A DNA stretch of 64,000 nt, taken from assembly GCA_035506135.1 (NCBI GenBank), contig DATJPY010000044.1, forward strand, positions 1,528-65,527. Reading direction: 5' to 3'. This stretch comes from Myxococcota bacterium. GTDB lineage: Bacteria > Myxococcota_A > UBA9160 > PR03. Shown here piece by piece: positions 4,483 to 64,000 of the stretch. The position numbers and the translations under genes were made by a program. Position 1 is the first letter of the stretch. Each line of letters opens with the position of its first letter. The notes under the pieces were generated by a model. It saw only the letters and a program-made list of their open reading frames with translations. It ran no database searches and was not told where the DNA came from.

Positions 4483-4534
4483 GCGACTCCTCCTGCGGCC
4501 GCCTCGACGATGCGGGCGGCGGTTCGGACGCGGA

Positions 4535-5167
4535 TCATCCGGCCACCGTCGACGCCAGCAGGAGCTGCGCGCCAAAGTAGAGCGGCAGGCCCCAGAGCTT
4601 GTTCGAGAAGCTCTTGGCGACGAAGCGCTCGCGCGCCACCGCGAGATCGGAGAGGTAGAAGGCGGCTGCGCCGAGCGCGATCGCCCGGCGCGGCTCGTGG
4701 CCCACGGTGCCGAACGCGCACACCAGCATGCCGGAGATCACGACGAGGTACGCGAGCACCGGCCGCTGCAAGCGGACCGGGACGTGCGGGAAGATCGAGC
4801 GCAGCGCCAGCAGGCTGGCCGGCAGCACGGCGAGCGCCGCGATCAGGCAGGCCGAGATGTCGAGACCGCGCACGGCGAAGGCGATGGCGTAGGCGACGTG
4901 GCCGAGCAGGAAGCTCACCAGCCCGGCGAGGAACGCGACGTGCGCACCGCGCGGGATCAGCAATACGTCCCCGAGCGCCGCGAGCAGGAGGCCGCCGAGG
5001 AGCCAGGTGCCGTACCCCGAGTCGAGCGCGCCCGCCGCGAGCGCGGCGGCGACGAAGCCGGCCGACGCGAGGGGCTTCGCGATCCAGACGCCGGGTCGCC
5101 AGCCGAAGCGCTCGGCGACCAGCAGCGCGGCGGTGGCGGCGACCGTGAGCGCGGCGAAGGGAAGCAC
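4535..5167 (-). CDS. YhhN family membrane protein (lysoplasmalogenase family)
   Basis: C-terminal 210 aa of ORF 4535..5989, from GTG 5167, 11 nt after the DUF1295 stop. It is polytopic: LLGGLLLAALGDVLLI..AFLAGLVSFLLGHVAYAIAF..AAAFYLSDLAVARERF. The start codon is uncertain. Confidence 0.7.
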   Translation of the reverse strand: MLPFAALTVAATAALLVAERFGWRPGVWIAKPLASAGFVAAALAAGALDSGYGTWLLGGLLLAALGDVLLIPRGAHVAFLAGLVSFLLGHVAYAIAFAVRGLDISACLIAALAVLPASLLALRSIFPHVPVRLQRPVLAYLVVISGMLVCAFGTVGHEPRRAIALGAAAFYLSDLAVARERFVAKSFSNKLWGLPLYFGAQLLLASTVAG

Positions 5168-10019: not shown

Positions 10020-11528
10020 ATGGCCGCCGCCGCGATTCCGCTGCGCGAAGAGGTGTCGAGCTTCCTGAGGCGCCCGCGCCCGATGCTGATCGGAGGGCGC
10101 TGGGTCGAAGCGGCCTCGGGGAGGAGCTTCGAGACGCTCGATCCCGCCACGGGCGAGACCCTCGCGCGGGTGGCGGAGGGCGACAGCCAGGACGTCGAGC
10201 GAGCGGTCGCCGCGGCGCGGCGGGCGTTCGAGGGGCCGAGCTGGCGCGGCATCACGCCGGCCGAGCGCGGCCGCCTGCTGATGCGGCTCGCCGACGCGGT
10301 GGAGGCGCACGCCGACGAGCTCGCGCAGCTCGAGTCGCTCGACAACGGGAAGCCCGTGGCGGTGGCGCGAGGCGCGGACCTCCCGCTCGCCGCCGACTGC
10401 CTGCGCTACTACGCGGGTTGGGCGACCAAGATCGAGGGCGAGACGATCCCGGTGTCGGTGCCGTTCGCGCCGGGCGCGCGCTTCCTCAACTACACGCTGC
10501 GCGAGCCGATCGGCGTGGTCGGCCAGATCATCCCGTGGAACTTCCCGCTGTTGATGGCGGCGTGGAAGCTCGGCCCCGCGCTGGCGGCGGGCTGCACCGT
10601 GGTGCTGAAGCCCGCCGAGCAGACGCCGCTCTCGGCGCTCCGCCTCGGCGAGCTGGTGCAGGAGGTCGGCTTCCCGGATGGCGTCGTCAACATCGTCACC
10701 GGGTTCGGCGAGACCGCGGGCGCTGCGCTCGCTGCGCACCCCGGAGTCGACAAGGTCGCCTTCACCGGGTCGACCGAGGTCGGGCGCCTGATCGTGCGCG
10801 CCGCGGCCGGCAACCTGAAGAAGGTGTCGCTCGAGCTGGGCGGCAAGTCGCCCAACATCGTGCTGCCCGACGCCGACCCCGCGGCGGTCGCCGAGGGCGC
10901 CGCCGGCGCGATCTTCTTCAACCACGGCCAGTGCTGCTGCGCCGGCTCGCGGCTCTACGTCCACCGGAGCCTGTTCGACGACGTGGTCGACGAGGTCTGC
11001 GCGCGCGCTCGCTCGATCAAGGTCGGGCCCGGGATGAGCCCCGACACCGAGATGGGTCCGCTGGTGTCCGACGAGCAGTACCGGCGCGTTACCGGCTACA
11101 TCGAGTCGGGGCAGCGCGACGGCGCGCGCACCCTGATCGGCGGCGGCCGGCCCGCGGCGCTGCGGCGCGGCTACTTCGTCGAGCCCACGGTCTTCACCGA
11201 CACCGACCACTCGATGGCGGTGGTGCGGGAGGAGATCTTCGGGCCCGTGCTGACGGCGATGCCGTGGGACGACCTCGACGACCTGGTGCGCCAGGCCAAC
11301 GACACCATCTACGGGCTCGCGGCCGGCGTGTGGACCCGCGACGTCGCAAGCGCGCACCGGCTCGCCGCCGGGCTGCGCGCGGGAACGGTCTGGGTCAACT
11401 GCTACAACGTCTTCGATGCCGCCGCTCCCTTCGGCGGCTACAAGCAGTCGGGCTGGGGCCGCGAGATGGGCCACCACGCGCTGCAGCTCTACACCGAGGT
11501 GAAGAACGTCTGGGTGAACCTCGCGTAG
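10020..11528 (+). CDS. NAD(P)+-dependent aldehyde dehydrogenase
   Basis: ORF 10020..11528. Motifs: FTGSTEVG, LELGGKSP, and catalytic Cys in FFNHGQCCCAGSR. AAGGAG lies upstream. Confidence 0.95.
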   Translation: MAAAAIPLREEVSSFLRRPRPMLIGGRWVEAASGRSFETLDPATGETLARVAEGDSQDVERAVAAARRAFEGPSWRGITPAERGRLLMRLADAVEAHADELAQLESLDNGKPVAVARGADLPLAADCLRYYAGWATKIEGETIPVSVPFAPGARFLNYTLREPIGVVGQIIPWNFPLLMAAWKLGPALAAGCTVVLKPAEQTPLSALRLGELVQEVGFPDGVVNIVTGFGETAGAALAAHPGVDKVAFTGSTEVGRLIVRAAAGNLKKVSLELGGKSPNIVLPDADPAAVAEGAAGAIFFNHGQCCCAGSRLYVHRSLFDDVVDEVCARARSIKVGPGMSPDTEMGPLVSDEQYRRVTGYIESGQRDGARTLIGGGRPAALRRGYFVEPTVFTDTDHSMAVVREEIFGPVLTAMPWDDLDDLVRQANDTIYGLAAGVWTRDVASAHRLAAGLRAGTVWVNCYNVFDAAAPFGGYKQSGWGREMGHHALQLYTEVKNVWVNLA

Positions 11529-11600: not shown

Positions 11601-13034
11601 TCAGCGCGCCGGGGCGGGAAGCTTCACCTCGGCGACCTCGCACAGCTCCGCGAAGTTCCGCTCGATCGCCACGGCGAAGTCGTGCAGGTCCGGGACCAGG
11701 TCCCAGTCCGAGACGAAACCCCAGTGCAGCCGGCCGGCGTAGCTGAACAGCGCCACGCCGAGGCTCTGGTGGGTGAGCAGGTTGAGCATCGGATACGTCT
11801 CGAGCACGCGCGCGCCGAGCAGGTAGAGCGGAACCTGCGGGCCCGGCACGTTGGTGACGACCAGGTTCGCCGCGCGGTTGCGGTAGGCCATGCGCGACGC
11901 GAGCGAGAGCAGCGTCGGGACGGTCCACTCGGCGACCGCGGCGAGCACGCCGGCGCCCATCGCCTGCTTCGACTCCTTGAGCCGCGCGGTGATCTCGCAG
12001 GTGAGAGCGAGCCGGCGGCGCGGGTTGGTCTCGCCCGTCGGCAGGCTGGCTGCCCAGAGCGCGATCTGGTTGCCCGTGGTTCCGCGCGCGCTGGCCGCCC
12101 GGACGCTGACCGGCACCATCGCGCGGAGATCCAGGGTGCGCTGGGCGCTGCGCGGAACGCCGCGCTGCTCCAGGAAGTCGCCGAGGGCGCCCGCCACGAT
12201 GGCGAGGACCACGTCGTTCACGGTGCCGCCCAGCCGGTCTTTCACCGCCTTCACGGGCCGAAGGTCGAGCGTGGTCCAGTCGAAGCGGCGATGCGGGCCG
12301 AGCTCGCGGTTGAGCGGCGTCTCGGAGGCGGCGCTGAGGCCGGCCGCCAACGTCTCGCCGAGCGCCGCGACCTGCTCGCGTACACGCGACAGCGTCGCAC
12401 CCGGGCTCCGCGCGGCGCCCGCGAGCGCGCGCGCCGCGGTGAACGGCATTCCGAGCCGCCGCTGCAGCTCGCCGGTGGCGATCTCCCAGGCGCTCGGGGT
12501 GGGCTCGGGCAGCCAGGCCGGCGGCTCCGGGACCGTCTCGTCGGGCGCCGGCGAGAGCAGCATGCTCAGCAGGTCGACGCCGGCGATGCCGTCGATCATG
12601 CAGTGGTGGGTCTTGGAGATCAGCGCCGCGCGATCGCCCTCGAGGCCCTCGACGATCCACAGCTCCCAGAGCGGCTTTCCAGGGTCGAGCCGCTGCGACA
12701 GGATGCGCGCGGCCAGCCGCTTGAGCTGCCGCTCGTCGCCCGGGCGCGGCAGGGCCGTGTGACGGACGTGGTAGTGCAGGTTGAAGCGGTCGTCGTCGAT
12801 CCAGACCGGGTGGTTCTCGATCGGGATCCAGGCGAGGCGCTGCCGGTAGCGCGGGATGCGGTGGAGCCGCGCGCCGACGTAGCTCCGAACGCGATCGGCG
12901 TCGAGCCCGCCGTCCTCGTTGCGGAGCGGGCCCGTCTCGAGGAGCAGCACGGCGCCGACGTGCTGCGGGTAGCGCTCGTCCTCGAAGTCCAGGAAGGTGC
13001 GGTCGAGGGCGGAGAGGCGTTCGTAGCGGGCCAA
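11601..13034 (-). CDS. wax ester synthase / acyl-CoA:diacylglycerol acyltransferase (WS/DGAT)
   Basis: ORF 11601..13034. Active-site motif HHCMIDGIAGVDL (HHxxxDG). TTG start with AGGAGG 7 nt upstream. Confidence 0.9.
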   Translation of the reverse strand: MARYERLSALDRTFLDFEDERYPQHVGAVLLLETGPLRNEDGGLDADRVRSYVGARLHRIPRYRQRLAWIPIENHPVWIDDDRFNLHYHVRHTALPRPGDERQLKRLAARILSQRLDPGKPLWELWIVEGLEGDRAALISKTHHCMIDGIAGVDLLSMLLSPAPDETVPEPPAWLPEPTPSAWEIATGELQRRLGMPFTAARALAGAARSPGATLSRVREQVAALGETLAAGLSAASETPLNRELGPHRRFDWTTLDLRPVKAVKDRLGGTVNDVVLAIVAGALGDFLEQRGVPRSAQRTLDLRAMVPVSVRAASARGTTGNQIALWAASLPTGETNPRRRLALTCEITARLKESKQAMGAGVLAAVAEWTVPTLLSLASRMAYRNRAANLVVTNVPGPQVPLYLLGARVLETYPMLNLLTHQSLGVALFSYAGRLHWGFVSDWDLVPDLHDFAVAIERNFAELCEVAEVKLPAPAR

Positions 13035-50138: not shown

Positions 50139-50220
50139 GGCGGTGCCGAGCGTGCGGGCCGCGCAGCGAGCCGCAGGCGAGCGAAGCTCATCCGATGGGT
50201 CCGCGGTGGAGCCGGGTGGA

Positions 50221-52221
<2,001 letters not shown>

Positions 52222-52223
52222 GC

Positions 52224-52292
52224 CCGTCGGGCGATACGCGTCGAGCCGTCCGGGCGATACGCGTGGAGCCCTCCGGACGATAAACTCGCCGG
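52224..52292. repeat. three tandem 23-bp units in the uvrB-uvrC spacer
   Basis: Units are ccgtcgggcgatacgcgtcgagc, cgtccgggcgatacgcgtggagc and cctccggacgataaactcgccgg. Units 1 and 2 match at 19/23; units 2 and 3 match at 14/23. The shared core is CGG(G/A)CGATA. The repeat ends 1 nt before the uvrC GTG. Confidence 0.8.
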
Positions 52293-52293
52293 C

Positions 52294-54198
52294 GTGGCGG
52301 GTCGCGAGTCGGAGACGGCGTTCGAGGAGCGGATCGAGAGCCTGCCCACCGGCCCGGGCGTCTATCTCTTCAAGAACGCGCGCGGGCGGGTGCTGTACGT
52401 GGGCAAGGCGCAGAACCTGCGCTCGCGGGTGCGCTCCTACCTGCGCGCGGGCGGCGACGGGCGCATCCGCGTTGCGCCGATGGTCGAGCAGGCCGCCGAC
52501 GTCGAGGTCGTGGTTACCCCGTCGGTCAAGGACGCGCTGCTGCTCGAGAACGAGCTGATCAAGCGCCACAAGCCGCCGTTCAACGTGCGGCTTCGCGACG
52601 ACAAGCAGTATCTCGGCCTGCGCCTCGACGCGCGCGAGTCGTGGCCGCGCCTCACGCCCGTGCGACGCTTCCGCGAGGACGGTGCGGCGTACTTCGGGCC
52701 CTACACCTCGAGCCAGTCGCTGCGCGACGCGGTCTCGAACCTGCGGCGCATCTTCCCGCTCCGCTCGTGCAGCGATCCGGTGTTCCGCGACTACGCGCGC
52801 CGCGGCCGCCCGTGCATCGAGTACGAGATGAAGCGCTGCCTCGGCCCGTGCTGCGGCCTGATCGGGACCGCCGCCTACGCCGAGCTGGTCGAGGGCACGG
52901 CGCTCTTCCTGCGCGGCCGCTCGGACGAGCTGCTGCGGGAGCTGCGGCAGGGCATGGACAAGGCGGCCGAGGAGGAGCGCTTCGAGGACGCGGCGCGGCT
53001 GCGCGATCGCATCGCGGCGGTCGAGCAGACGGTGGCGCGCCAGCAGATCGTCGCCGAGCGCGCAGTCGACCGCGACGCCTTCGGCCTCGCGCGGCGCGGC
53101 GGCGAGGTCGAGGTCGCCGTCCTCCACGTGCGCGCCGGACGCGTGGTCGGCCACGGGAGCTGGTCGTTCTCCGAGGTCCAGCTCGACGACGCGGAGGCGC
53201 TGGGCTCGTTCCTCGGTCAGTACTACGGCGCCCCGGATCGCCCGCCAGCGCGCGAGGTCCTGGTGCCGCTCGAGCCGGCGGACGGCAGCGCCCTCGCGGA
53301 GCTGCTGGCCGAGCGCGCCGGGCGCCGCGTCTCGCTGCGCATCCCGCAGCGGGGCCCCCTGCGCGAGCTGGTGGCCATGGCGGACGCGAACGCCTCGCTG
53401 CGTCTGGCCCAGCGCGTCGACGCGCGCGAGAGCGTCACCGCCGCCCTCGCGGAGCTGCAGGAGCGGCTCGGGCTGGCCCGGCTGCCGCGCCGCATCGAGT
53501 GCTACGACGTCTCGACGCTCGGCGGCGCGCTCGCGGTCGCGAGCCGCGTGGCGTTCGAGGACGGGCGCCCCGACAAGTCCGGCTATCGGCGCTACCGGAT
53601 CCGCGAGGCGCCGGGCGGCGACGACGTGGCCTGTCTGCGCGAGGTGATCCAGCGGCGGCTCGGGCGCCGCGCTGCCGAGCCGCTCCCGGACCTGCTGATG
53701 GTCGACGGCGGCAAGGGACAGGTGGGCGTGGTGAGCGCGGCGCTGCGCGACGCCGGCGTGACACAGGACGTGGTCGGCATCTCGAAGGAGCGCGACGACG
53801 CGGCGGCGACCGCGATCTCCCCGCGCGCGCCGCGCGTTCGCCGCAGCGGCGGCCTCAAGGCGGAGCGGCTCCACCTTCCCGGCCGCAAGGATCCCGTGCT
53901 GCTGCCTGCGAGCTCGTCGGCGCTGCTCCTGCTGCAGCGCGTGCGCGACGAAGCGCATCGCTTCGCGATCGAGTTCCAGCGCCAGCTCCGGCAGCGCGCG
54001 AACCTGACGTCGATCCTCGAGGAGGTCCCCGGCATCGGGCCCGGCAAGCGGCGCGCACTGCTGCGCGAGCTCGGCTCGCTGCGCGCGGTGCGCGAGGCGG
54101 ACGAGGCGCAGCTCGCCGGTGTGGGCGGGGTTTCGGCCGAGGACGCGCGGCGCATCCGCCGCTTCTTCGACGCCCTCGGCGACGCTGCACCGCGCTGA
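52294..54198 (+). CDS. uvrC: excinuclease ABC subunit C
   Basis: ORF 52294..54198 (GTG start). GIY-YIG domain: GVYLFKNARGRVLYVGKAQNLRSRV..ENELIKRHKPPFN. UVR domain: FEDAARLRDRI. C-terminal (HhH)2: VPGIGPGKRRALL. Confidence 0.95.
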   Translation: MAGRESETAFEERIESLPTGPGVYLFKNARGRVLYVGKAQNLRSRVRSYLRAGGDGRIRVAPMVEQAADVEVVVTPSVKDALLLENELIKRHKPPFNVRLRDDKQYLGLRLDARESWPRLTPVRRFREDGAAYFGPYTSSQSLRDAVSNLRRIFPLRSCSDPVFRDYARRGRPCIEYEMKRCLGPCCGLIGTAAYAELVEGTALFLRGRSDELLRELRQGMDKAAEEERFEDAARLRDRIAAVEQTVARQQIVAERAVDRDAFGLARRGGEVEVAVLHVRAGRVVGHGSWSFSEVQLDDAEALGSFLGQYYGAPDRPPAREVLVPLEPADGSALAELLAERAGRRVSLRIPQRGPLRELVAMADANASLRLAQRVDARESVTAALAELQERLGLARLPRRIECYDVSTLGGALAVASRVAFEDGRPDKSGYRRYRIREAPGGDDVACLREVIQRRLGRRAAEPLPDLLMVDGGKGQVGVVSAALRDAGVTQDVVGISKERDDAAATAISPRAPRVRRSGGLKAERLHLPGRKDPVLLPASSSALLLLQRVRDEAHRFAIEFQRQLRQRANLTSILEEVPGIGPGKRRALLRELGSLRAVREADEAQLAGVGGVSAEDARRIRRFFDALGDAAPR

Positions 54199-54245
54199 GC
54201 GCGGCGCCGTCAAGGCGCCGGAGCGGCCTGCCGATCCGACGAGGG

Positions 54246-55121
54246 ATGACGCTGCGGCGCGCCCTCGTCTGCACGCTCGCGCTCGTTGCCGGCTGGCTGC
54301 CGCCTGCTGCGGCCGAGGTCTACCGCTGGACCGACGCGCAGGGCGAGGTGCACTACAGCGGCGACCTCGCCGAGGTGCCTCCGGACCAGCGCGACGCCGC
54401 GCGCGGCGCCGCGCCGTCGATGGGTGCGAATCGCGTCCAGACGTACAGCGCGCCGCCTGCCTCGCCGCAGCCGGCGCGCCCGCGCTCCGCCGATGCGGAG
54501 ACGAGTCCGGCGCGCGTGCACCGGATTCCGGTCCAGCGCGGCGCGGCGGGCATGATCGTGATGGTCCAGCTCAACGGCCGCGCCGTCGCGCCGTTCCTGG
54601 TCGACACGGGCGCCAGCTACGTGCTGGTTCCCCAGTCGCTTGCCGACGAGATCGGCGTCAAGGTGGGACCCGACACGCGGAAGATGCGCTTCGCGACCGC
54701 CAACGGGGTGGTGGAGCAGCCCATCGTGATGCTCGACTCGGTCGAGCTCGGCGACGCGCGCGCGGACGAGGTGCCCGCGAGCATCTCGCCCTCGCTCGGC
54801 ATCGGGCTGCTCGGCCTCTCCTTCTTCAACCGCTTCACCTACCAGATCGACGCGGCGGCCGGCCTGCTGACGCTCACCGAGAACGATCTCGCCGAGAGCG
54901 GCGGGATCCTCGGCGGGCGCAGCGAGGGGCAGTGGCGCGGCGAGTTCATGGGCCTGCGCGTGCGCCTCGCGGAGCTCGAGGCGCGCCGCGATGCGACGCC
55001 GCCGAACCACTCCCGGCAGCTCGATCGCCTCGATCAGGAGCACGCCGCGCTCGAGCGCCAGATCGAGACGCTGGACGCCGAGGCGGACCGCGCGCGCGTG
55101 CCGGACGCCTGGCGCCGCTGA
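54246..55121 (+). CDS. DUF4124 + retropepsin-like (clan AA) aspartic protease + C-terminal coiled coil
   Basis: ATG 54246 in the frame of ORF 52641..55121. It has a signal peptide or anchor. DUF4124-like: VYRWTDAQGEVHYSG. Protease core: MIVMVQLNGRAVAPFLVDTGASYVLVP..IGLLGLSFFNRF. The tail is helical and heptad-like. Confidence 0.7.
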   Translation: MTLRRALVCTLALVAGWLPPAAAEVYRWTDAQGEVHYSGDLAEVPPDQRDAARGAAPSMGANRVQTYSAPPASPQPARPRSADAETSPARVHRIPVQRGAAGMIVMVQLNGRAVAPFLVDTGASYVLVPQSLADEIGVKVGPDTRKMRFATANGVVEQPIVMLDSVELGDARADEVPASISPSLGIGLLGLSFFNRFTYQIDAAAGLLTLTENDLAESGGILGGRSEGQWRGEFMGLRVRLAELEARRDATPPNHSRQLDRLDQEHAALERQIETLDAEADRARVPDAWRR

Positions 55122-55241
55122 GGGCGCGGTAGCGGACTTCCCAGAATGGGGAGACCGGCGCCCTCGTCGGTGTGGCGGGGCGCCTGCCGCGCCGCGTCGC
55201 GTCGCGCCCCGTGGCATCGATCTTGCTCCCTCCGGGCCTCG

Positions 55242-55616
55242 ATGCGCATCCGCCCCCGCAGCGATCCGCACGAGCGCCGCGAGCGCGCGCGAATCCGCCT
55301 CGACCTCGAGCGGCTCGGCGTCGCGGACGAGCTGCGGGACGAGCTCTCGCGCCGCCTCGAGGCGCTCTCGAACAATCTCTCGGAGGACGCCTACGATGCC
55401 GCCCTCGCCGGCGTGGCGCTGGCGGACGCGCTCCACCGCGAGGGCGCCGAGGCGCAGCGGCATCGGGCACGCGACCTGGGCGAGATCCAGCGCCTGCTCG
55501 GCGCATTCTCCGAGGAGATGCGCAAGCTCGATGAGGCGCTCCAGATCCTCTCGACCTACGTCCAGCGCATGCGCTCGCGCACGCGCGTCGTCGAGCGCCC
55601 CAAGCTGATGCACTGA
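55242..55616 (+). CDS. hypothetical all-helical protein (124 aa)
   Basis: ATG 55242 within ORF 55146..55616. GC3 bias is very strong from 55242 onward. I recognise no family. The first 32 codons of the ORF (Cys/Trp/Arg-rich) look non-coding. No SD is present. Confidence 0.5.
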   Translation: MRIRPRSDPHERRERARIRLDLERLGVADELRDELSRRLEALSNNLSEDAYDAALAGVALADALHREGAEAQRHRARDLGEIQRLLGAFSEEMRKLDEALQILSTYVQRMRSRTRVVERPKLMH

Positions 55617-55789
55617 TCCTGCAGCGCGCCTGGGTCGGGAGCGCGCGGCGCGGCTCGCGTCGCCGGCGGGCCGGTGCCGCGATATCCTCGCACCCACTCC
55701 GCGGTCCCGCGGCAGATCGGCGCATCGGCTTCTTCGGCGACTTCTTCGGCGTACTCGGCAGCTTCCTCGGCCAGCTCGGCCTCGCGCAG

Positions 55790-58126
55790 GTGCTCGCGAT
55801 CCTGGCGGCCGACCGCGACGTCGTGTCGGGCGCGGCGCTCTCGAAGCTCGCCGCGATCGGCATCGCGCTGGCGCTCGCCGGGCGGTCGCGCGCGGGCCGT
55901 CGGCTGGCGGCGGCGCTCGCGTTGGGCGCCGCCTCGGCGTTCGGCCTCGCCGAACGGCTCGATGAGGCGTCGCGCCACGTGCCGGCCGCGCCGCTCGAGG
56001 CGACGCTCGAGGCCACGGTGACGCGCGCCGCGCCCCTTCCGGGTGCCGTCGAGCTCGACCTCGCCGGGGTGCGCGCCGTCGGAGGCGAGGGACCGCTGCC
56101 GCCGCGCCTGCGGCTGCGCGCACCGATCGAGGGCGTGCACGATGCGAGGACTCCGCCGTTCGCGTCCGTGCTCCCCGGCGATCGGCTGCGCCTGCGCGCG
56201 CGGCTGCGCCCCTTCGAGGAGCGCGCGAATCCGGGAGGCCGGGGTCGCGCGCGCGATCTCGCGCGGATCGGCATCGCGACGATGGCCGCGCCGGTCCATC
56301 CGGATCTCGTCGTGCGTCTGCCCGACGGCGAGCGCATCCGTCCGCTGGCCGCGCTCCATCGATTCCGCGCGCGCGCCGGCGCGCGGCTCGCGGCCGAAGG
56401 GGAGGGTGGCGAGCTGCTCCGCGCGCTCGCGCTCGGAGACCGCGGCGGCCTCGAGCGGCCTTCCATCGACGCATTCCGCAGCCTCGGGCTCACGCATCTC
56501 CTCTCGGTGTCGGGGGTCCATCTGGCGCTGGCGGGAGCGCTCTTCTACCGGATCGCGCGGCGCGCGCTCCTGCGCTCGCGGCGCTCGGTCGATCCGCGGC
56601 GACCCGCGCTGCTGCTCGCGGCCGGCGCCGCCGGCGGCTACGCGCTGCTCGCGGGCTGGGACGTCCCGGTCCGCCGCTCGCTCGTCATGCTGATCGGCCT
56701 CGCGCTCTCGTTCGCGGCCCGGCGCTCGGTCCAGCGCGGCGCGCCGCTGCTCGGAGCCGCCGTGCTGGTCCTCGCGTTCGATCCCGAGGCGCTCTTCGAC
56801 GCCGGAGCGCAGATGTCGTTCGGCGCGAGCGCGGCGCTGGTGGCGGGGTCGAGCCGGGCGTCGAGCGGCGCCGGGGAGCCGGCGCGCTGGGGACGCGCCC
56901 GGCGCTGGCTCGCCGAGATGCTCCAGGCGGGTGCCGTCGCGAACGCCGCCACGGCCCCGATCGCGGCGAGCGCGATCGGGGTGCTCTCGCCCTGGGCGCT
57001 CGCCGCCAACCTGGCAGCGATCCCGTGGACCGAGCTGGCGCTCCTGCCGTGCGCGCTCGTCGCCGCGCTGGCGGCCGGACTCGCGCCCGACGCGAGGGTG
57101 AGCGGGCTCCTGCTGCGCGCCTCGGCGGCCGTCGCTGCCGCGTCGCTCGAGGGGCTTCGGCGCACCGCCGCCGCGCTCCCCGATGCCTGGACCGCGTCGC
57201 CCGGAGCGGCCGCCGTGGCGGCCGCGCTGCTCGCCGCGCTCCTGCTCGTGCGCGTGCGCGGCACGATCCGCCGCTGTGTCGGGTCGCTCGCGATCACGCT
57301 CGCCCTCGCGCTCGCGCCACCGGCGCGCATCGACCCCGCTCCGCCGCGGCTCGTGAGCCTCGATGTCGGGCAGGGCGACGCGGCCGTCGTGCAGGGCCGC
57401 TCCGCGGCGCTCTTGATCGACGGCGGCCCCGCCGTCCCGGGCGGACGCGACCTCGGCGAGTCGGTGGTGCTGCCGGCGCTGCGCGCGCTCGGCGTGCGCC
57501 GCCTCGACCTGGTGGTCGCCAGCCACGGCGACCTCGACCATCGCGGCGGGCTTCCGGCCGTGGTGCGCGCGCTGCCGGTCGGCCGGGTCTGGCTCCCCTT
57601 CGGTGGGCTTCGCGACCCCGCGTTCGAGGCGCTGATCGAGATCGCACGCGCGCGCGGCGTCGCGGTCGAGGAGCGCGGAGCGGGCTCGGCCGCCGCGCAG
57701 CTCGGCGACCTCCGCGTGACACCGCTCTGGCCGCCGCCGGACGAGGCCGCGAGCGGCGGCCCCGGACGCCGCAACGACCGCTCGCTCACGGTGCGCGTCG
57801 ATGCGGCGGGCCGCGGCCTCCTCTTTCCCGGCGACATCGAGGCGGGCGCGGAGGCGCGGCTCGTCGCCTCCGGCGCGCTGCTCCGCGCGGACGTGCTGAA
57901 GCTCCCGCACCACGGCAGCCGCACCTCGTCCTCCGCGCGACTCCTCGACGCCGTCGACGGCGGAGTGGCGATCGTGTCGGCGCCGCGCTGGAGCCGCTTC
58001 GGCATGCCGCATCCCGAGGTCGTCGCGCGCGTCGCGGGGGACGGCTACGCCGTGTGGTGGACGGGGCGCGACGGCGCGGTGCTGATCGGGCTCGATCCGC
58101 GCCTCTGGGTCCGGGGGTGGCGCTGA
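55790..58126 (+). CDS. comEC: DNA internalization competence protein ComEC/Rec2 (with metallo-beta-lactamase domain)
   Basis: ORF 55790..58126. It has a polytopic competence domain (LTHLLSVSGVHLALAGALF..) and a C-terminal MBL domain (LVSLDVGQGDAAVV..ASHGDLDHRGG..LKLPHHGSRTSS). The true N-terminus may lie upstream (see findings). Confidence 0.9.
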   Translation: MLAILAADRDVVSGAALSKLAAIGIALALAGRSRAGRRLAAALALGAASAFGLAERLDEASRHVPAAPLEATLEATVTRAAPLPGAVELDLAGVRAVGGEGPLPPRLRLRAPIEGVHDARTPPFASVLPGDRLRLRARLRPFEERANPGGRGRARDLARIGIATMAAPVHPDLVVRLPDGERIRPLAALHRFRARAGARLAAEGEGGELLRALALGDRGGLERPSIDAFRSLGLTHLLSVSGVHLALAGALFYRIARRALLRSRRSVDPRRPALLLAAGAAGGYALLAGWDVPVRRSLVMLIGLALSFAARRSVQRGAPLLGAAVLVLAFDPEALFDAGAQMSFGASAALVAGSSRASSGAGEPARWGRARRWLAEMLQAGAVANAATAPIAASAIGVLSPWALAANLAAIPWTELALLPCALVAALAAGLAPDARVSGLLLRASAAVAAASLEGLRRTAAALPDAWTASPGAAAVAAALLAALLLVRVRGTIRRCVGSLAITLALALAPPARIDPAPPRLVSLDVGQGDAAVVQGRSAALLIDGGPAVPGGRDLGESVVLPALRALGVRRLDLVVASHGDLDHRGGLPAVVRALPVGRVWLPFGGLRDPAFEALIEIARARGVAVEERGAGSAAAQLGDLRVTPLWPPPDEAASGGPGRRNDRSLTVRVDAAGRGLLFPGDIEAGAEARLVASGALLRADVLKLPHHGSRTSSSARLLDAVDGGVAIVSAPRWSRFGMPHPEVVARVAGDGYAVWWTGRDGAVLIGLDPRLWVRGWR

Positions 58127-58187
58127 GGGCGCGGTCGCAGCAGCTGGCGCTTGGAGCGGAACTCCGCCTCGATTACGCTGGCGGCCG

Positions 58188-59270
58188 ATGGCGGATCCCA
58201 GGCCGGCCGCGCCGCCGCCCGAGCTGATCGACGTGCGCCCCGACGAGCGCTTCGACGAGGCGCGCCTCGCCGGCTTGCTGCGCGGCCGCCTCGAGGGCTC
58301 CGACGCGCCCCTGGTCGTCCGCCAGTTCGGCGGCGGCCACGCGAACCTGACCTACCTGCTGCGCTTCGGCGACGGCCCGCAGACGCGCGAGTACGTGCTG
58401 CGCCGGCCTCCGCTCGGCCCGGTGGCGCCCGGCTCGCACGACATGTCGCGCGAGCACCGCGTGCTCGCCGTGCTCTGGCGGGCGTTCCCGCTGGCGCCGC
58501 GGTCGTACCTCTACTGCGACGACGCGTCGGTGATCGGCGCGCCGTTCTTCGTGATGGAGCGCCGTCACGGGGTGGTGGTGCGCGGCGGCATCCCGCCCGA
58601 GTTCGGCGGCGGCCGCGACGCGGTCGCCAACCGCAAGCTCTCCGAGGTGGTGGTGGACGTGCTCGCCGACTTCCACGCGGTCGACGCGGCGCGCGCCGGG
58701 CTCGGCGACCTGGGCCGCCCGGAGGGCTTCCTCCAGCGGCAGGTGCAGGGCTGGAGCGAGCGCTGGGAGCGCTCGCGCGTCGAGCCGAATCCGCTCGCGG
58801 ACGAGCTCCAGCGCTGGCTGCTCGACAATCTTCCGGTGTCCCCCGCGCCGACCCTGCTGCACAACGACTGGCGCCTCGACAACATGGCCGTGGCCTCCGA
58901 CGACCCCGGCCGCTGCGTCGCCGTGTACGACTGGGACATGTGCACGCGTGGCGATCCGCTCGCGGACCTCGGCACCGTGCTCGCGGTCTGGTACGAGCCC
59001 GACGAGGTGCCCTCGACGCTGAATCCGATGCCGACGACCACGGCCGGATTCCTGTCGCGCGCCGAAGCGGGCAAGCGCTACGCGGAGCGCAGCGGGCGCG
59101 ACGTGGGTGCGCTCCCCTACTACCTGGTGTTCGGCACGTTCAAGATGGCCGTCGTGCTCCAGCAGATCTACGTCCGCTTCCACCGCGGCCAGACCCAGGA
59201 CCAGCGCTTCGCGGGGATGGGAGAGGGCGCCCGCTCGCTGTTCCGCCTCGCCGACGCGCGGCGCCCCTGA
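58188..59270 (+). CDS. APH-fold phosphotransferase, ACAD10/11 N-terminal-kinase-like
   Basis: ORF 58188..59270. Sequence: VRQFGGGHANLTYLLRFG..EYVLRRPPLGPVAPGSHDMSREHRVL..ASVIGAPFFVMERRHG..LLHNDWRLDNM..VYDWDMCTRGDPLADL. Confidence 0.85.
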   Translation: MADPRPAAPPPELIDVRPDERFDEARLAGLLRGRLEGSDAPLVVRQFGGGHANLTYLLRFGDGPQTREYVLRRPPLGPVAPGSHDMSREHRVLAVLWRAFPLAPRSYLYCDDASVIGAPFFVMERRHGVVVRGGIPPEFGGGRDAVANRKLSEVVVDVLADFHAVDAARAGLGDLGRPEGFLQRQVQGWSERWERSRVEPNPLADELQRWLLDNLPVSPAPTLLHNDWRLDNMAVASDDPGRCVAVYDWDMCTRGDPLADLGTVLAVWYEPDEVPSTLNPMPTTTAGFLSRAEAGKRYAERSGRDVGALPYYLVFGTFKMAVVLQQIYVRFHRGQTQDQRFAGMGEGARSLFRLADARRP

Positions 59271-59313
59271 GCGCGAGCCGGATGCGGTAGGCTCCGCCCC
59301 GAGAGGAGCCCCC

Positions 59314-60543
59314 ATGGCCATCGACTTCAGCTTCCCCGAGGAGATCGAGCTCGTGCGCCGTCGCGTGCGGGACTTCATCGACAAGGTGGTGCGCCCGGCC
59401 GAGCAGGAGATCGAGGCCCACGAGGGCGAGCGCAAGGTGCTCGTCGAGCAGGTGATCCGGATGCGCAAGGCCGCACAGGAGTGGGGCCTCTGGCTGCCGC
59501 ACATGCCGGAGGAGTACGGGGGCATGGGGCTCGGGCACGTCGCGATGGCCGCGGTCTCGGCGGAGGCCGCCAAGTCCCGCTTCGGCCCGTTCGCGCTGAA
59601 CGCGCAGGCGCCCGACGAGGGCAACATGCACACGCTCCTGCACTGGGGCACCCCCGAGCAGAAGCAGAGGTACCTGCGCCCGCTCTGCGAGGGCCGCGCC
59701 CGCTCGTGCTTCGCGATGACCGAGCCCGAGGTCGCCGGCTCGGATCCCACGCTGATCCAGACGCGCGCGGTCGACCGCGGCGACCACTGGGAGATCAACG
59801 GACACAAGTGGTTCATCTCGGGCGCACACGGCGCGAACTTCGCGATCCTGATCGCGCGCACCGAGGACGACCCCGAGGTCCCGCAGGCGACCAACACCGC
59901 GTTCCTGGTCGACGTCCCGAGCGACGGCTGGGAGGTCGTCCGCGACATCCACACCATGAGCGGTCCGAGCCACAACCACTGCGAGATCCGCATCCGCGAC
60001 CTGCGCGTGCCGGCGGACGCCGTGCTCGGCGGGCGCGGGAACGGACATCGGCTCGGCCAGTACCGGCTCGGTCCCGCGAGGCTGGCGCACTGCATGCGCT
60101 GGATCGGGCAGGCCGAGATCGCGCTCAACATGACGATCGACCGCGCGCTCAAGCGCTTCGCGCACGGCTCGCTGCTGGCGGAGAAGCAGGGGATCCAGTG
60201 GATGATCGCGGACAGCACGATGGAGCTCTACCAGTGCAAGCTGATGGTGCTGCACGCCGCCTACCGGATCGACCGCGGCGACGACTTCAAGAGCGAGGTC
60301 TCGATGGCCAAGCACTTCGTCGCGAACGCGCTGAACCGCATCATCGACCGCGCGGTCCAGGTCCACGGCGCGCTCGGCTACTCGACCGACACCCCGCTGG
60401 CGCACATGGCGACCCAGGCGCGCTGGGCGCGCTTCGCCGACGGCGCCGACGAGGTGCACCAGTGGCGCATCGCGCAGCGCGCCATCGAGGCCTACACGAG
60501 GACGGGGAGCGTCACCAGCGCGGCCGGCGATCTGCCGCTCTGA
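59314..60543 (+). CDS. acyl-CoA dehydrogenase, FadE2/ACAD10-11-like subfamily
   Basis: ATG 59314 (GAGGAG upstream) in the frame of ORF 59107..60543. Sequence: CFAMTEPEVAGSDPT..HKWFISGA..RLGPARLAHCMRWIGQAE..IDRAVQVHGALGYSTDTPLAHM..RFADGADEVH. Confidence 0.9.
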   Translation: MAIDFSFPEEIELVRRRVRDFIDKVVRPAEQEIEAHEGERKVLVEQVIRMRKAAQEWGLWLPHMPEEYGGMGLGHVAMAAVSAEAAKSRFGPFALNAQAPDEGNMHTLLHWGTPEQKQRYLRPLCEGRARSCFAMTEPEVAGSDPTLIQTRAVDRGDHWEINGHKWFISGAHGANFAILIARTEDDPEVPQATNTAFLVDVPSDGWEVVRDIHTMSGPSHNHCEIRIRDLRVPADAVLGGRGNGHRLGQYRLGPARLAHCMRWIGQAEIALNMTIDRALKRFAHGSLLAEKQGIQWMIADSTMELYQCKLMVLHAAYRIDRGDDFKSEVSMAKHFVANALNRIIDRAVQVHGALGYSTDTPLAHMATQARWARFADGADEVHQWRIAQRAIEAYTRTGSVTSAAGDLPL

Positions 60544-60587
60544 CCCGCGCGCCCGCGGCGCGCCGGCGGGGTCAGGGGGGGAGGACC

Positions 60588-61799
60588 GTGACCGGCGACC
60601 GCCTCGTCACGCGCCCGTTCGTGCTCTGCTCGGCCGCCAACTTCCTGCAGGCGCTGGCCTTCAACTTCTATCTCCATCTGCCCGGCTTCCTGCACGAGCT
60701 CGGCGCCGGCGAGGTGCAGATCGGCGTGCTGTCGGCCGTGACCGCCGTGGCGGCGATCGCCGTGCGCCCGCCGCTCGGCCGCGCCATGGACCTGCGCGGC
60801 CGGCGGCCGCTGGTGTGGGCGGCGGGGGCGCTCAACGTCGGTGTATGCCTGCTCTATCTCACGATCGACTCGCTCGGGCCCTGGGTGTACGCGGTGCGGG
60901 TGGTGCACGGGCTCGCGGAGGCGACGCTCTTCACGGTGCTGTTCACGATCGCGGCCGACTGGGTGCCCGCGAGCCGCCGCACCGAGGGGCTCGCGCTCTA
61001 CAGCGCGACCGGCATGCTCCCGATCTCGCTCGGCGGCGTGCTCGGCGACGCGATCCTGGCGCGGGGCAGCTACGAGGCGCTGTTCCTGGCCTCCTCCGCG
61101 GCGGCGGGTGCGTCGTTCCTCTGCTCGCTCCCGCTCGAGGAGCATCCGCGCCCGCCGCTTCGCGCGGGCGAGCGGCGCGGGCGCTTCGCCGCCGTGCTCG
61201 CGCAGCGCGAGCTGGCGCCGCTCTGGTTCCTCGGCACCGTGTTCGGCATCGTGCTGACCGGCGTCTTCGTGTTCGTGAAGCGCTTCGCGATGGAGACGCA
61301 GGTCGCGAGCGTGGGCGCCTTCTTCACGGCCTACACCGGAGCGGCGATCTCGGTGAGGGTGGTCGGCGGCCGGCTCCCGGACCGCGTCGGGCCGAAGCGC
61401 GTGCTGCTGCCGGCGCTGGCGACGCTCATCGGCGGGCTCGCGTTCCTGGCGATCGCGCGCAGCGCGCGCGAGGTGCTCGCCGCCGGCGTCCTCTGCGGCG
61501 TGGGCCACGGCTTCACCTATCCGATCCTCTCGTCGCTGGCGGTGAGCCGCGCGCGCGAGCTCGACCGCGGCACCGCGATCGCGATCCTGACGTCGCTCCC
61601 GGACGTCGGCGCGCTGGTCGGAGCGCCGCTGCTCGGCTGGATCCTCGAGCGCGGCGGCTTCGGCGCGATGTTCGGCGCCGCCGCGGCGATGTTCGCCCTC
61701 GGGAGCGCCGTCTTCGTCGGCTGGGATCGGCGCGCCGACCGGGCGGAGCGTGCCGTGGCGGGGACGGCCGACTCGCAGAAGCCCGCCGCGGCGCCGTGA
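60588..61799 (+). CDS. MFS transporter
   Basis: GTG 60588 (GGGAGG upstream) in the frame of ORF 59481..61799. About 12 hydrophobic segments. The loop motif GRAMDLRGRRP lies between TM2 and TM3. Confidence 0.85.
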   Translation: MTGDRLVTRPFVLCSAANFLQALAFNFYLHLPGFLHELGAGEVQIGVLSAVTAVAAIAVRPPLGRAMDLRGRRPLVWAAGALNVGVCLLYLTIDSLGPWVYAVRVVHGLAEATLFTVLFTIAADWVPASRRTEGLALYSATGMLPISLGGVLGDAILARGSYEALFLASSAAAGASFLCSLPLEEHPRPPLRAGERRGRFAAVLAQRELAPLWFLGTVFGIVLTGVFVFVKRFAMETQVASVGAFFTAYTGAAISVRVVGGRLPDRVGPKRVLLPALATLIGGLAFLAIARSAREVLAAGVLCGVGHGFTYPILSSLAVSRARELDRGTAIAILTSLPDVGALVGAPLLGWILERGGFGAMFGAAAAMFALGSAVFVGWDRRADRAERAVAGTADSQKPAAAP

Positions 61800-61866
61800 G
61801 GCGCGGAACGCGGAGCCGCGCGAGGGCCATCCGCTAGACTGCGTCGCCCGTCGACGCGGAGGAGCC

Positions 61867-62376
61867 ATGGCCGAGTTCGAGTTCCCGGTCGAGCGCACGG
61901 CGATCCTCGACTTCGCCGCCGCGCTCGGCGAGACGAATCCGATCTACTGGGACGAGGCGCGCGCGCGGGCGACGCCGCTCGGCGGCGTGATCGCCCCGCC
62001 GACCTTCGCCGTCACCTCGGCCCACTGGAACCCGAGCCACGCCTTCCGCGGCGTGCGCCGGATCCCCGCGCCTGCGCCGGGCGGCGCCGACGAGGCGCAG
62101 GGCGAGCGCGCGGGCCGGGCGCGAGGCGAGGGCGGGCCCGCCAACCTGAGCCGCGTGCTGCACGGCGAGCAGCGCTTCGTCTACCACCAGGCGATTCGCC
62201 CCGGCATGCGGCTGCGCGTCGCGATGAAGCCCGGGCGGAGCTGGGAGAAGGAGGGCAAGCGCGGCGGCAAGCTCCGCATGAGCGAGACGATCTCGGAGTA
62301 CCGCGACGAGCAGGGCCAGCTCGTGGTGACGGCGATCAGTGTCGGAATCGTCACCGAGAAGGCGGTCGAGTCGTGA
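61867..62376 (+). CDS. MaoC N-terminal-type hot-dog dehydratase subunit
   Basis: ATG 61867 (GGAGGAG upstream). Sequence: FEFPVERTAILDFAAALGETNPIYWDE..VIAPPTF..VLHGEQRFVYH. Confidence 0.75.
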   Translation: MAEFEFPVERTAILDFAAALGETNPIYWDEARARATPLGGVIAPPTFAVTSAHWNPSHAFRGVRRIPAPAPGGADEAQGERAGRARGEGGPANLSRVLHGEQRFVYHQAIRPGMRLRVAMKPGRSWEKEGKRGGKLRMSETISEYRDEQGQLVVTAISVGIVTEKAVES

Positions 62377-62798
62377 CTGGCGCCGCGCGGCTGCGCGCCG
62401 CGGACCTGGCGGTCGGCCAGGTCCGCGAGGCGGTGGTGGTGGAGAGCCTCTCGCGCACGCAGATCGTGATGTATGCCGGTGCGTCGGGTGACTTCAATCC
62501 GATCCACCACGACGAGGAGTTCGCCACCCGCGCGGCCGGCTATCCCTCCGTCTTCGCGCACGGCATGCTCTCGATGGGGCTCACCGGCCGGCTGCTGACG
62601 GACTGGCTCGGCGATGGCGTGCTGCGCGAGTTCGGCGTCCGCTTCGTGCGGCAGGTCTGGCCGGGCGACACGCTCACCGCGAAGGGGACGGTCACCTCGA
62701 TCGGACCCGACGGGCGGGTCGCGATCGAGCTCGTCACCACCAACCAGCGTGGCGAGCCGGTGGTCGCGGGCGACGCCGTCGCAGTGCTGCCGGCCTGA
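62373..62798 (+). CDS. MaoC-like (R)-specific enoyl-CoA hydratase hot-dog subunit
   Basis: ORF 62373..62798 (GTGA overlap). Sequence: YAGASGDFNPIHHDEEFA..GYPSVFAHGMLSMG. Confidence 0.85.
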   Translation: MTGAARLRAADLAVGQVREAVVVESLSRTQIVMYAGASGDFNPIHHDEEFATRAAGYPSVFAHGMLSMGLTGRLLTDWLGDGVLREFGVRFVRQVWPGDTLTAKGTVTSIGPDGRVAIELVTTNQRGEPVVAGDAVAVLPA

Positions 62799-62808
62799 GA
62801 CGGTCCGG

Positions 62809-64000
62809 ATGAGCACGCTGCGGGAGCGGGTCGACGACCTGGCTGCGCGCAAGGGGCGCGCCGCCGAGATGGGCGGCGCCGAGCGCATCGCCAGGCAGCA
62901 CGCGCGCGGCAAGCTGACCGCCCGCGAGCGCATCGCGCTCCTGCTCGACGGCGGCGCCTTCGACGAGCTAGGCATCCTGGGCAAGCAGCCGGGGGTGGAC
63001 TCGCCGGCGGACGCCGTCGTGTGCGGCTTCGGGAAGATCGACGGCCGGCCCGCTTGTGTCGCGGCCTACGACTTCACCGTGCTCGGCGGATCGATGGGGC
63101 CGACCGGCGAAGCGAAGGTGGCACGGCTGCGCGAGCTCGTCCTGCGCCACCGCATGCCGATCGTCTGGCTGGTCGACTCCGGCGGGGCGCGGATCGGCGG
63201 CGGAGGGATGGGCGGCGGCGGCGCCGCCGACGAGGAGAGCGGCGCCTCGACCTTCGCCGAGACCGGGGCCCTGTTTCGCGAGCAGGTGATCCTTTCCGGT
63301 GTCGTTCCGCAGGTGGCGGCGATGGTGGGGCCCGGCGCGGCGGGCACGGCCTACATCCCGGGCCTCGCCGACTTCGTCCCGATGGTGAAGGGCACCTCGT
63401 CGATGGCGCTCGGCGGGCCCTACCTGGTCAAGGCCGCCGTCGGCGAGGACGTCTCGGAGGAGGATCTGGGCGGCTCGAAGGTGCACTGCGAGCTCTCCGG
63501 CGTCGCCGACCTCGAGGTGGCCGACGACGCGGCCTGCATGGAGGTGATCCGCAGCTACCTGTCGTTCCTGCCGAGCCACTGCGAGGAGCCCCCGCCGCGC
63601 CGGCCCTGCGACGACCCGATCGAGCGCAGCGACGAGGCGCTGCTCGATCTGGTGCCCGACAACCCGCGCCGGGCCTACGACATGCGCAAGCTGCTCGCGA
63701 TCCTGGCCGATCGCGGCGAGGTGTTCGAGCTGAAGCCTCGCTTCGCGCGCAACCTGATCACGGCCTTCGTGCGGCTCGGCGGCCGGCCGCTCGGCGTGGT
63801 CGCCAACAACCCGATGTTCCTGGGGGGCGTGCTCGACATCGACAGCGCCGACAAGGCGGCCAAGTTCGTCGAGATCTGCGACGCCTTCGGCGTTCCGCTG
63901 CTCTTCGTGCAGGACACGCCGGGCTTCGTGATCGGCTCCAAGGTCGAGCGGGCCGGCATCATTCGCCACGGCGCCAAGATGCTCCACTACGTGTCGGCGG
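62809..64000 (+). CDS. acyl-CoA carboxylase carboxyltransferase (beta) subunit; 3-prime end lies beyond the window
   Basis: My own translation from ATG 62809: MSTLRERVDDLAARKG..RQHARGKLTARERIALLLDGGAFDELG..VAAYDFTVLGGSMG..PIVWLVDSGGARI..PQVAAMVGPGAAGTAYIPGL..GVVANNPMFLGGVLDIDSADKAAKFVEICDAFGVPLLFVQDTPGF. It is not in the ORF track because it is open at the edge. Confidence 0.9.
   Translation, partial: MSTLRERVDDLAARKGRAAEMGGAERIARQHARGKLTARERIALLLDGGAFDELGILGKQPGVDSPADAVVCGFGKIDGRPACVAAYDFTVLGGSMGPTGEAKVARLRELVLRHRMPIVWLVDSGGARIGGGGMGGGGAADEESGASTFAETGALFREQVILSGVVPQVAAMVGPGAAGTAYIPGLADFVPMVKGTSSMALGGPYLVKAAVGEDVSEEDLGGSKVHCELSGVADLEVADDAACMEVIRSYLSFLPSHCEEPPPRRPCDDPIERSDEALLDLVPDNPRRAYDMRKLLAILADRGEVFELKPRFARNLITAFVRLGGRPLGVVANNPMFLGGVLDIDSADKAAKFVEICDAFGVPLLFVQDTPGFVIGSKVERAGIIRHGAKMLHYVSA

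Follow-up and report, generated by a model that had tools for sequence, protein, structure and literature searches.

The locus described here raises the question whether a kinase and an acyl-CoA dehydrogenase (ACAD) family protein, encoded side by side in a member of the Myxococcota, act together on hydroxylated acyl-CoAs by phosphorylating them and then eliminating the phosphate. The two genes lie on contig DATJPY010000044.1 (Myxococcota bacterium, GCA_035506135.1) in a stretch of 64,000 nucleotides with a GC content of 74%, referred to as the window in the following, and are the first of six genes running on the plus strand between positions 58188 and 64000. Split bacterial pairs of this kind have already been published and biochemically tested. 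LvaA(B)/LvaC from Pseudomonas putida and the orthologous proteins from Burkholderia pseudomallei perform the same phosphorylation-elimination chemistry as ACAD10 and ACAD11 (Rashan et al., PMC12440821; Paquay et al., 2024, PMC11342911). The initial annotation of the window had taken the pair for the two halves of ACAD10/11 and had compared it with LvaA/LvaC. With moderate confidence, we too regard kinase and ACAD as a two-step phosphorylation-elimination bypass of the LvaA/LvaC and ACAD10/11 type.

In a search against all solved structures the kinase was matched best by 9o56 (1e-101; 48% identity), by 3dxp (1e-45) and by ACAD11 (5e-41; about 32% identity). The next matches followed at 1e-11 and 1e-8, that is after a gap of 30 orders of magnitude, and nothing further was found below 1e-3. 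Neither an aminoglycoside nor a homoserine kinase was among these matches, and the clustering with such enzymes, which the initial annotation had named as the outcome that would speak against it, was not seen. In ACAD11 the kinase is characterized by D220 and N225 and by R86 and R176, which contact CoA; these residues, counted among the features shown or proposed as essential (Rashan et al., PMC12440821), correspond to D227, N232, R88 and R184 of the window kinase in an HMMER alignment. In the window protein the catalytic Asp227 lies within HNDWR and the metal-binding Asp248 within DWD, and together with Asn232 they make up the HxDxxxxN plus DW[ED] signature of ACAD10/11-LvaA-type kinases; D227, N232 and D248 align with D214, N219 and D234 of 9o56. 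Replacement of the beta3 lysine by arginine, paired with the alphaC glutamate, is a feature of ACAD10-type kinases (PMC13596139). It is present here as Arg72 and as Glu89 of the Arg88-Glu89 pair, and the CoA-contacting arginine positions, including Arg184 in RQV, are occupied as well. These motifs are kept across the family alignment. Judged by its sequence, the window kinase stands nearer to kinases of the ACAD10/11 type than to those acting on aminoglycosides or homoserine.

The ACAD was matched at 215-224 bits by 4hr3 from Mycobacteroides abscessus, by human ACAD11 (2wbi) and by mouse ACAD11 (8v3u/8v3v), whereas classical medium-chain and short-chain acyl-CoA dehydrogenase (MCAD/SCAD) structures reached 157 bits at best. 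Enzymes of the ACAD10/11-LvaC type carry a catalytic aspartate instead of glutamate (D753 in the mouse protein), an HCMR motif (H634...R637) and an upstream arginine, R626, and for the helix that turns R626, H634 and R637 towards the active site a phosphate-binding role has been described (Rashan et al., PMC12440821). In the window ACAD, R251, H259-C-M-R262 and D376 take exactly these places in an HMMER alignment, and the Asp376 column coincides with that of the D753N exchange in the 8v3v mutant and with that of E376 (YEGT) in MCAD. The canonical catalytic glutamate, which the initial annotation had listed as a sign of an ordinary dehydrogenase, was not seen; Asp376 stands instead. A survey of 83 orthologue loci (70-89% identical ACAD, up to 10 kb to each side) revealed that RLGPARLAHCMRW is unchanged in all 83, as is the R251...HCMR segment, and that the Asp motif is kept in 80 of them. 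The peptides on which the initial assignment of both proteins had been based, GGHANLTYLL, YVLRRPP and IGAPFFVMER as well as RLGPARLAHCMRWIGQAE and ADGADEVH, are all present in the translations.

The affiliation of the ACAD is nevertheless less close than had been assumed. Neighbour-joining analysis, with bootstrap support counted on bipartitions, yielded a clade I (100%) with ACAD11, 4hr3 and proteins from Deinococcus, Cupriavidus and Sphingopyxis, and a clade II (77%) with the window ACAD, its orthologues, a 60% identical relative and the ACADs encoded on Thermus thermophilus pTT27 (47% identical to the window ACAD) and Rhodococcus jostii pRHL2 (44%). The R...HCMR arrangement occurs in members of both clades except Rhodococcus pRHL2 (HGMW) and 4hr3 (HAMR), and the aspartate in all of them. 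The tree was built without LvaC, ACAD10 and the B. pseudomallei ACAD, the placement of LvaA and LvaC being based on published identities. Within the ACAD11/LvaC clade, identity to human ACAD11 amounts to 56-58% for bacterial members retrieved from a plasmid collection, ACAD11 and 4hr3 share 50%, and for LvaC 56-62% identity to the ACAD10/11 domains has been published (PMC11342911). The window ACAD, in contrast, shares 35-37% with ACAD11 and 4hr3 and 31% with MCAD, and in the neighbour-joining tree it falls beside, not within, the clade of ACAD10/11, LvaC and their bacterial orthologues (about 50-62% identity). While the superfamily and all diagnostic residues agree with the initial annotation, the ACAD is thus not an orthologue but a cousin in a sister clade that has the same active-site motifs. 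Its narrower orthologue group, here termed clade W, is 70-89% identical among 80 species representatives, which come from Myxococcota, Binatia, Acidimicrobiia/Microthrix, Nonomuraea, Hyphomicrobiales/Parvibaculum and others. Conservation of this degree over distant phyla is unusual for a metabolic gene with no fixed genomic context; strong constraint or horizontal transfer could lie behind it.

We infer the following reaction from family membership and residues, the chain length of the substrate being conjectural. The kinase would use ATP to phosphorylate the 4-hydroxyl group of a 4-hydroxyacyl-CoA. In the ACAD the helix with Arg251, His259 and Arg262 would hold the phosphate and Asp376 would act as the base, FAD taking part as well, such that phosphate would be eliminated without net redox change and a 2-enoyl-CoA would result that could enter ordinary beta-oxidation. 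The activation of the acid with CoA would have to be encoded elsewhere, and the same would apply to a biotin carboxylase partner for the carboxyltransferase found downstream.

A comparable course of events is established for the levulinate operon lvaABCDE of P. putida, where LvaA(B) and LvaC are likewise encoded by separate genes and convert 4-hydroxyacyl-CoA via 4-phosphoacyl-CoA into enoyl- or 3-hydroxyacyl-CoA. LvaC has the catalytic aspartate and the R626/H634/R637 cluster just as ACAD10/11 do (PMC12440821), and the window ACAD possesses the equivalent residues too. The loci differ in that no counterpart of LvaB, LvaD (an SDR protein), LvaE (a CoA ligase) or LvaR is present near the window pair; as kinase and ACAD gene are only 43 bp apart, there is no room for an LvaB-like open reading frame (ORF) between them. 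The mammalian proteins (8v3u/8v3v, 2wbi) are built from these two catalytic modules as well and have their key residues in common with the window pair, but are fused with the kinase N-terminal and the ACAD C-terminal, in the case of ACAD10 in addition to a HAD phosphatase, whereas two genes are found in the window. A further parallel, drawn from its description, is provided by B. pseudomallei (kinase Q63VL0), whose stand-alone kinase and ACAD can replace the ACAD10 domains in vitro (Paquay et al., 2024, PMC11342911).

APH-fold kinases of different subclades and ACADs of the HCMR type are encoded together in several phyla. Our kinase-side survey comprised 80 metagenome contigs with 65-100% identical kinases, 47 of which extend for at least 1.5 kb downstream; all neighbour counts from it are lower bounds, many contigs being short. 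The gene following the kinase encodes an HCMR-type ACAD in 12 of the 47, six times on the same strand (87-94% identity) and six times on the opposite strand (about 60%). The opposite-strand copy, seen at L123:11115-12323 (minus strand; L-numbers denote contigs or loci of relatives) and on five similar contigs, reads RLVDGADEVH and has the same RLGPARLAHCMRW, which suggests that the gene was replaced or inverted in place. In five Actinomycetota species a kinase of a distinct subclade is encoded 3-8 bp 5' of a clade-W ACAD (L057, L059, L060, L081 and, weakly, L069), the order being SDR-APH-ACAD-SDR in L081. In the Myxococcota a window-type kinase gene lies directly 5' of the ACAD gene in L008, the order in L013 is kinase-MFS-ACAD, and Rhodococcus RHA1 pRHL2 has APH-TetR-SDR-ACAD-SDR.

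Clusters resembling lva occur in Thermus and Deinococcus. On pTT27 of T. thermophilus HB8 (L169, 1988-10128) the order is AMP-binding-SDR-ACAD-APH-DUF6285-histidine phosphatase with a divergent kinase, while the parallel cluster of Deinococcus radiodurans (L172) combines a clade-I ACAD with a kinase 46% identical to that of the window. Genes for SDR, MaoC, PaaI thioesterase, ACAD, kinase and histidine phosphatase are common to both, and those for the AMP-binding protein and DUF6285 are additional in Thermus, where DUF6285 occupies the place expected for LvaB. A histidine phosphatase is also present in the lva cluster of Pseudomonas citronellolis (PMC6692424). Furthermore, the 50%-identity cluster representatives of the kinase include natural fusions. 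P0153 (759 aa) consists of an N-terminal HCMR-type ACAD and a C-terminal kinase of the window type, that is, the eukaryotic order is reversed. In P0163 (608 aa) a window-type kinase is joined to an SDR protein, and in P0148 a kinase is joined to a membrane domain. According to the kinase tree, the subclades that partner ACADs differ between phyla. Functional coupling of such kinases with HCMR-type ACADs, those of clade II included, is well supported.

The positions of the six genes and of the diagnostic ACAD residues are summarized in the table.

Table. Genes of the kinase-ACAD locus and its 5' neighbour, with selected ACAD codons (window positions)
Feature	Position	Strand	Basis
ComEC	55790-58126	+	5' neighbour of kinase
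APH-fold small-molecule kinase, ACAD10/11-LvaA type, 360 aa	58188..59270	+	Pfam APH 6.5e-41
FAD acyl-CoA dehydrogenase-fold enzyme, HCMR/Asp type, clade II, 409 aa	59314..60543	+	three ACAD Pfam domains
Codons of R251...H259-C-M-R262 (RLGPARLAHCMR), putative phosphate-binding helix of ACAD	60064..60099	+	HMMER alignment to 8v3u/8v3v
Codon of Asp376, in FADGADEVH of ACAD	60439..60441	+	aligns with Asp753 (mouse ACAD11) and Glu376 (MCAD)
MFS_1 transporter, 403 aa	60588..61799	+	Pfam MFS_1 2.8e-45
Hot-dog subunit, FAS1_DH_region/MaoC_N-like, 169 aa	61867..62376	+	Pfam PF13452 2.5e-22
Catalytic subunit (MaoC) of a predicted (R)-specific enoyl-CoA hydratase/dehydratase, 141 aa	62373..62798	+	Pfam MaoC_dehydratas 2.2e-23
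PccB/AccD5-type acyl-CoA carboxyltransferase, first 397 of 525 aa in window	62809..64000	+	Pfam Carboxyl_trans 3.5e-107

ORF and Pfam scans confirmed the gene set of the initial annotation, including the hot-dog pair in which the GTG start of the MaoC gene overlaps the TGA stop of the preceding gene (GTGA). Since the Pfam E-values across the set range from 6.5e-41 to 3.5e-107 and the third-codon-position GC of the frames amounts to 0.92-0.96, the six ORFs are real genes and not chance ORFs of a genome with 74% GC. As none of the six proteins exceeded the cut-off of any NCBIfam model, no curated name is applicable to them. The same locus is carried by an ENA contig of 157.9 kb and by three other contigs. 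On the 5' side the kinase gene is preceded on the same strand by genes for CysS, UvrB, UvrC, a DUF4124/aspartyl-protease protein, a small ORF and ComEC. The carboxyltransferase gene continues on the same contig past the window end (L001:13496-15073) and is overlapped at its end by 31 bp by a matrixin (Peptidase_M10)-like ORF (L001:15043-16035), whose Pfam match is weak, for which a search of solved structures returned no relative and which is regarded here as a neighbour by synteny; minus-strand genes for NMO, a DnaJ/TPR protein, a hypothetical protein and an HD-domain response regulator follow.

Long minus-strand ORFs of up to 1341 aa (50188-54213, 54210-56474, 55556-58012 and 58173-60218) oppose real genes. 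Such ORFs, the one at 58173-60218 for instance, were ruled out as genes by codon-position GC and by their overlap with genes that have strong family matches, and they are artefacts of the 74% GC content. The 26 window ORFs that were scanned code for housekeeping proteins and a range of metabolic ones. Genes of lipid and xenobiotic type in other parts of the window are those for a luciferase-like monooxygenase (3475-4575, minus strand), an aldehyde dehydrogenase (10020-11528, plus strand), a WS/DGAT wax-ester synthase (11601-13034, minus strand) and a cytochrome P450 (16516-17748, plus strand).

Regarding the genes that follow the pair, the transporter remains without a specific family assignment in NCBIfam. 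The MaoC subunit carries the hydratase-2 motif YAGASGDFNPIH with Asp40 and His45, and its best solved relative is HadB (4rlj, 70 bits). The preceding hot-dog protein lacks the catalytic histidine (GETNPIY), gives weak matches to HadA, HadC and ChsH1 and is the probable non-catalytic partner, HadA/ChsH-like in character. In mycobacterial HadAB/HadBC and in ChsH1-ChsH2, too, two hot-dog genes adjoin and the catalytic Asp/His is confined to one of them. The pair fits this pattern and is predicted to be a two-subunit (R)-specific hydratase, with the difference that similarity to HadAB is low and that HadAB works on acyl-ACP during the synthesis of mycolic acids. Single MaoC genes occur in the kinase-ACAD clusters of Thermus and Deinococcus. 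In the proposed pathway the HadAB-like hydratase could form (R)-3-hydroxyacyl-CoA from the enoyl-CoA. The transporter and the hydratase probably belong to the kinase-ACAD module, with presumed roles in uptake and enoyl-CoA hydration, while the relevance of the carboxyltransferase and of the matrixin-like gene to the module is uncertain. The full-length carboxyltransferase matched the beta subunit of propionyl-CoA carboxylase best (1vrg, 446 bits), PccB and methylmalonyl-CoA decarboxylase alpha being its best matches at 380-446 bits and the beta subunits of methylcrotonyl- and geranyl-CoA carboxylase scoring lower. PccB differs from it in that no gene for biotin carboxylase or biotin carboxyl carrier protein (BCCP) lies near the window gene and no NCBIfam equivalog cut-off was reached.

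The initial annotation had gone further and had joined all six genes in one uptake-and-degradation pathway, and a single operon that, with additional downstream genes, would serve uptake, activation, bypass, hydration and carboxylation of hydroxylated or branched acids appears doubtful to us. The six genes are co-directional, with gaps of 10-67 bp or overlaps, and the breakdown of levulinate and 4-hydroxyvalerate leads to propionyl-CoA (PMC6692424), on which a PccB-type carboxyltransferase could act. The order APH-ACAD-MFS-MaoC_N-MaoC-CT-M10 (CT, carboxyltransferase; M10, matrixin-like gene) is kept in the nearest relatives only (L008, L090, L091; proteins 58-94% identical), and it is from partial synteny of this kind that the proposed pathway draws its support. 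On the other hand, neither a biotin carboxylase/BCCP partner nor a CoA ligase, for which the initial annotation had proposed inspecting the sequence beyond position 64000, was found in the 7 kb past the window end or among the 26 window ORFs, the matrixin-like gene and opposite-strand genes being present there instead. Scans of the cluster for promoters and terminators yielded nothing significant over shuffled controls, and ACAD orthologues elsewhere lack these neighbours. In the kinase-anchored contigs the carboxyltransferase gene was found downstream in 6 of 47, the MaoC pair in 11-12 and the transporter gene in 19. The commonest downstream gene of the kinase orthologue is the matrixin-like one (21 of 47). 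When the four intergenic spacers were folded, no structure exceeded shuffled controls, a GC-rich hairpin past the ACAD stop codon having z = -0.9.

Several observations weigh against the phosphorylation-elimination reading of the pair itself, in addition to the distance of the ACAD from ACAD11. A biochemically tested member of clade II was not found in the literature. No gene for a CoA ligase, an SDR protein or an LvaB-like protein lies within 10 kb to either side or among the 26 window ORFs. The short spacers between the six genes (43, 44, 67, -4 and 10 bp) allow for co-transcription without proving it. The nearest solved relative of the kinase, 9o56, matches by residue numbering a reported 1-O-alkylglycerol kinase. 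The pairing is sparsely conserved. An APH-family ORF occurs within 10 kb in about 16 of the 83 ACAD loci and directly 5' of the ACAD gene in six (L008, L057, L059, L060, L081 and, weakly, L069); a kinase is next door in about 8% of these loci, as compared with an ACAD next door in 26% of the 47 kinase loci. The majority of the kinase orthologue contigs have no adjoining ACAD gene, the kinase being followed by the transporter gene in 11, the matrixin-like gene in six, MaoC_N in one and something else in 17 of the 47. Unbiased clustering of ORFs around the 83 ACAD loci gave no neighbour family common to more than 14 of them, the largest clusters being formed by the ACAD and by shadow ORFs in its alternative reading frames. 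In the complete genome of Nonomuraea gerenzanensis the clade-W ACAD is encoded at 2.33 Mb and the nearest window-like kinase (42% identity) at 10.55 Mb, where it adjoins an SDR gene. Finally, on many contigs of relatives ComEC, an unrelated gene, is also syntenic 5' of the kinase orthologue (L089-L156; 48-80% identity), so that part of the conservation of gene order is plain lineage synteny and does not speak for a common function.

From these findings it could be argued that the adjacency is lineage-specific synteny without coupling and that the clade-W ACAD is a stand-alone enzyme for some other charged or phosphorylated, or even an ordinary, acyl-CoA. This would agree with the lack of an APH-family gene inside 10 kb in about 80% of the ACAD loci, with the missing conserved neighbour, with the synteny of ComEC and with the position of the ACAD gene between kinase and transporter genes, which is empty in many relatives and filled by the 60% identical opposite-strand copy in others. 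We nevertheless consider it unlikely. Kinases from at least three subclades, in different phyla, came to stand directly beside an ACAD gene, and by a rough estimate these recurrences would lie far above chance for a family that makes up much less than 1% of genes; moreover, the phosphate-binding motif of the ACAD is invariant and fusions of kinase and ACAD exist. With respect to the co-conservation of the pair, on which the initial annotation had made its proposal depend, adjacency is rare, which speaks in part against the proposal, but the pairing recurs in several phyla and as a fusion. Adjacency of kinase and ACAD is facultative.

A second activity published for this kinase clade, which the initial annotation had not weighed, concerns lipids. 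According to Ye et al. (bioRxiv, PMC13596139) ACAD10-type kinases, several prokaryotic homologues included, phosphorylate 1-O-alkylglycerols such as chimyl alcohol and co-occur with AGPS, and the 'ACAD10 kinase domain' homologue from Caldalkalibacillus thermarum is a 1-O-alkylglycerol kinase stimulated by acetyl-CoA. The numbering of 9o56 matches the residues R61, E78, D214, K216, N219, D234 and E236 of that study exactly, and the C. thermarum protein shares with the window kinase the beta3 Arg-for-Lys, the alphaC Glu, HxDxK/R, the Asn and DWE/D, differing in HYDYK and DWE where the window kinase has HNDWR and DWD. The window kinase might accordingly be thought of as mainly a lipid kinase for 1-O-alkylglycerol or monoacylglycerol, stimulated by CoA thioesters and serving the salvage of ether or membrane lipids, with the ACAD acting independently. 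The high score of 9o56 in the structure search and the activity reported for its prokaryotic relatives speak for this, as does the gene linkage in related contigs, where the matrixin-like and transporter genes accompany the kinase more often than an ACAD gene does (13 of 47). Myxobacteria are, in addition, among the few bacteria known for ether lipid synthesis. We regard a predominant role in lipid metabolism as quite unlikely all the same. Kinases of the same clade adjoin HCMR-type ACADs in Deinococcus and are fused to one in P0153, the CoA-contacting arginines are kept in the window kinase, and neither AGPS nor any further ether-lipid gene was detected among the 26 window ORFs scanned or the genes called around the cluster. 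Moreover, the 4-hydroxyacyl-CoA reaction is carried out by a B. pseudomallei kinase that had been selected because it resembles the ACAD10 domains more closely than the P. putida proteins do (PMC11342911). The two activities are not necessarily mutually exclusive and may coexist.

A combination in which a 1-O-alkylglycerol kinase is tied genetically to a phosphate-eliminating ACAD, the clade-II enzyme, which as a rule has no kinase neighbour, processing a phosphorylated lipid-derived acyl-CoA different from the known 4-phosphoacyl-CoAs, is very unlikely in our judgement; if true, a myxobacterial lineage that makes ether lipids would already unite both of the activities that are currently under dispute for mammalian ACAD10.

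Given the published split pairs, what the phosphorylation-elimination reading of the window pair adds is mildly new. It concerns a sister clade of ACADs that is very conserved and widespread and has no biochemically tested representative in the literature found, and whose members stand next to a kinase only sometimes, with a natural fusion of reverse order in existence. A practical gain would lie in better annotation, the present names being just 'acyl-CoA dehydrogenase family protein' and 'phosphotransferase family protein'. If the assignment holds, the kinase-plus-ACAD route for 4-hydroxy acids extends to the Myxococcota and to a second ACAD clade that is present in Myxococcota, Binatia, Acidimicrobiia, Nonomuraea and some Alphaproteobacteria. 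This second clade could then serve as a simple bacterial test bed for the question of the substrates of ACAD10-type kinases, be they 4-hydroxyacyl-CoAs, alkylglycerols or both.

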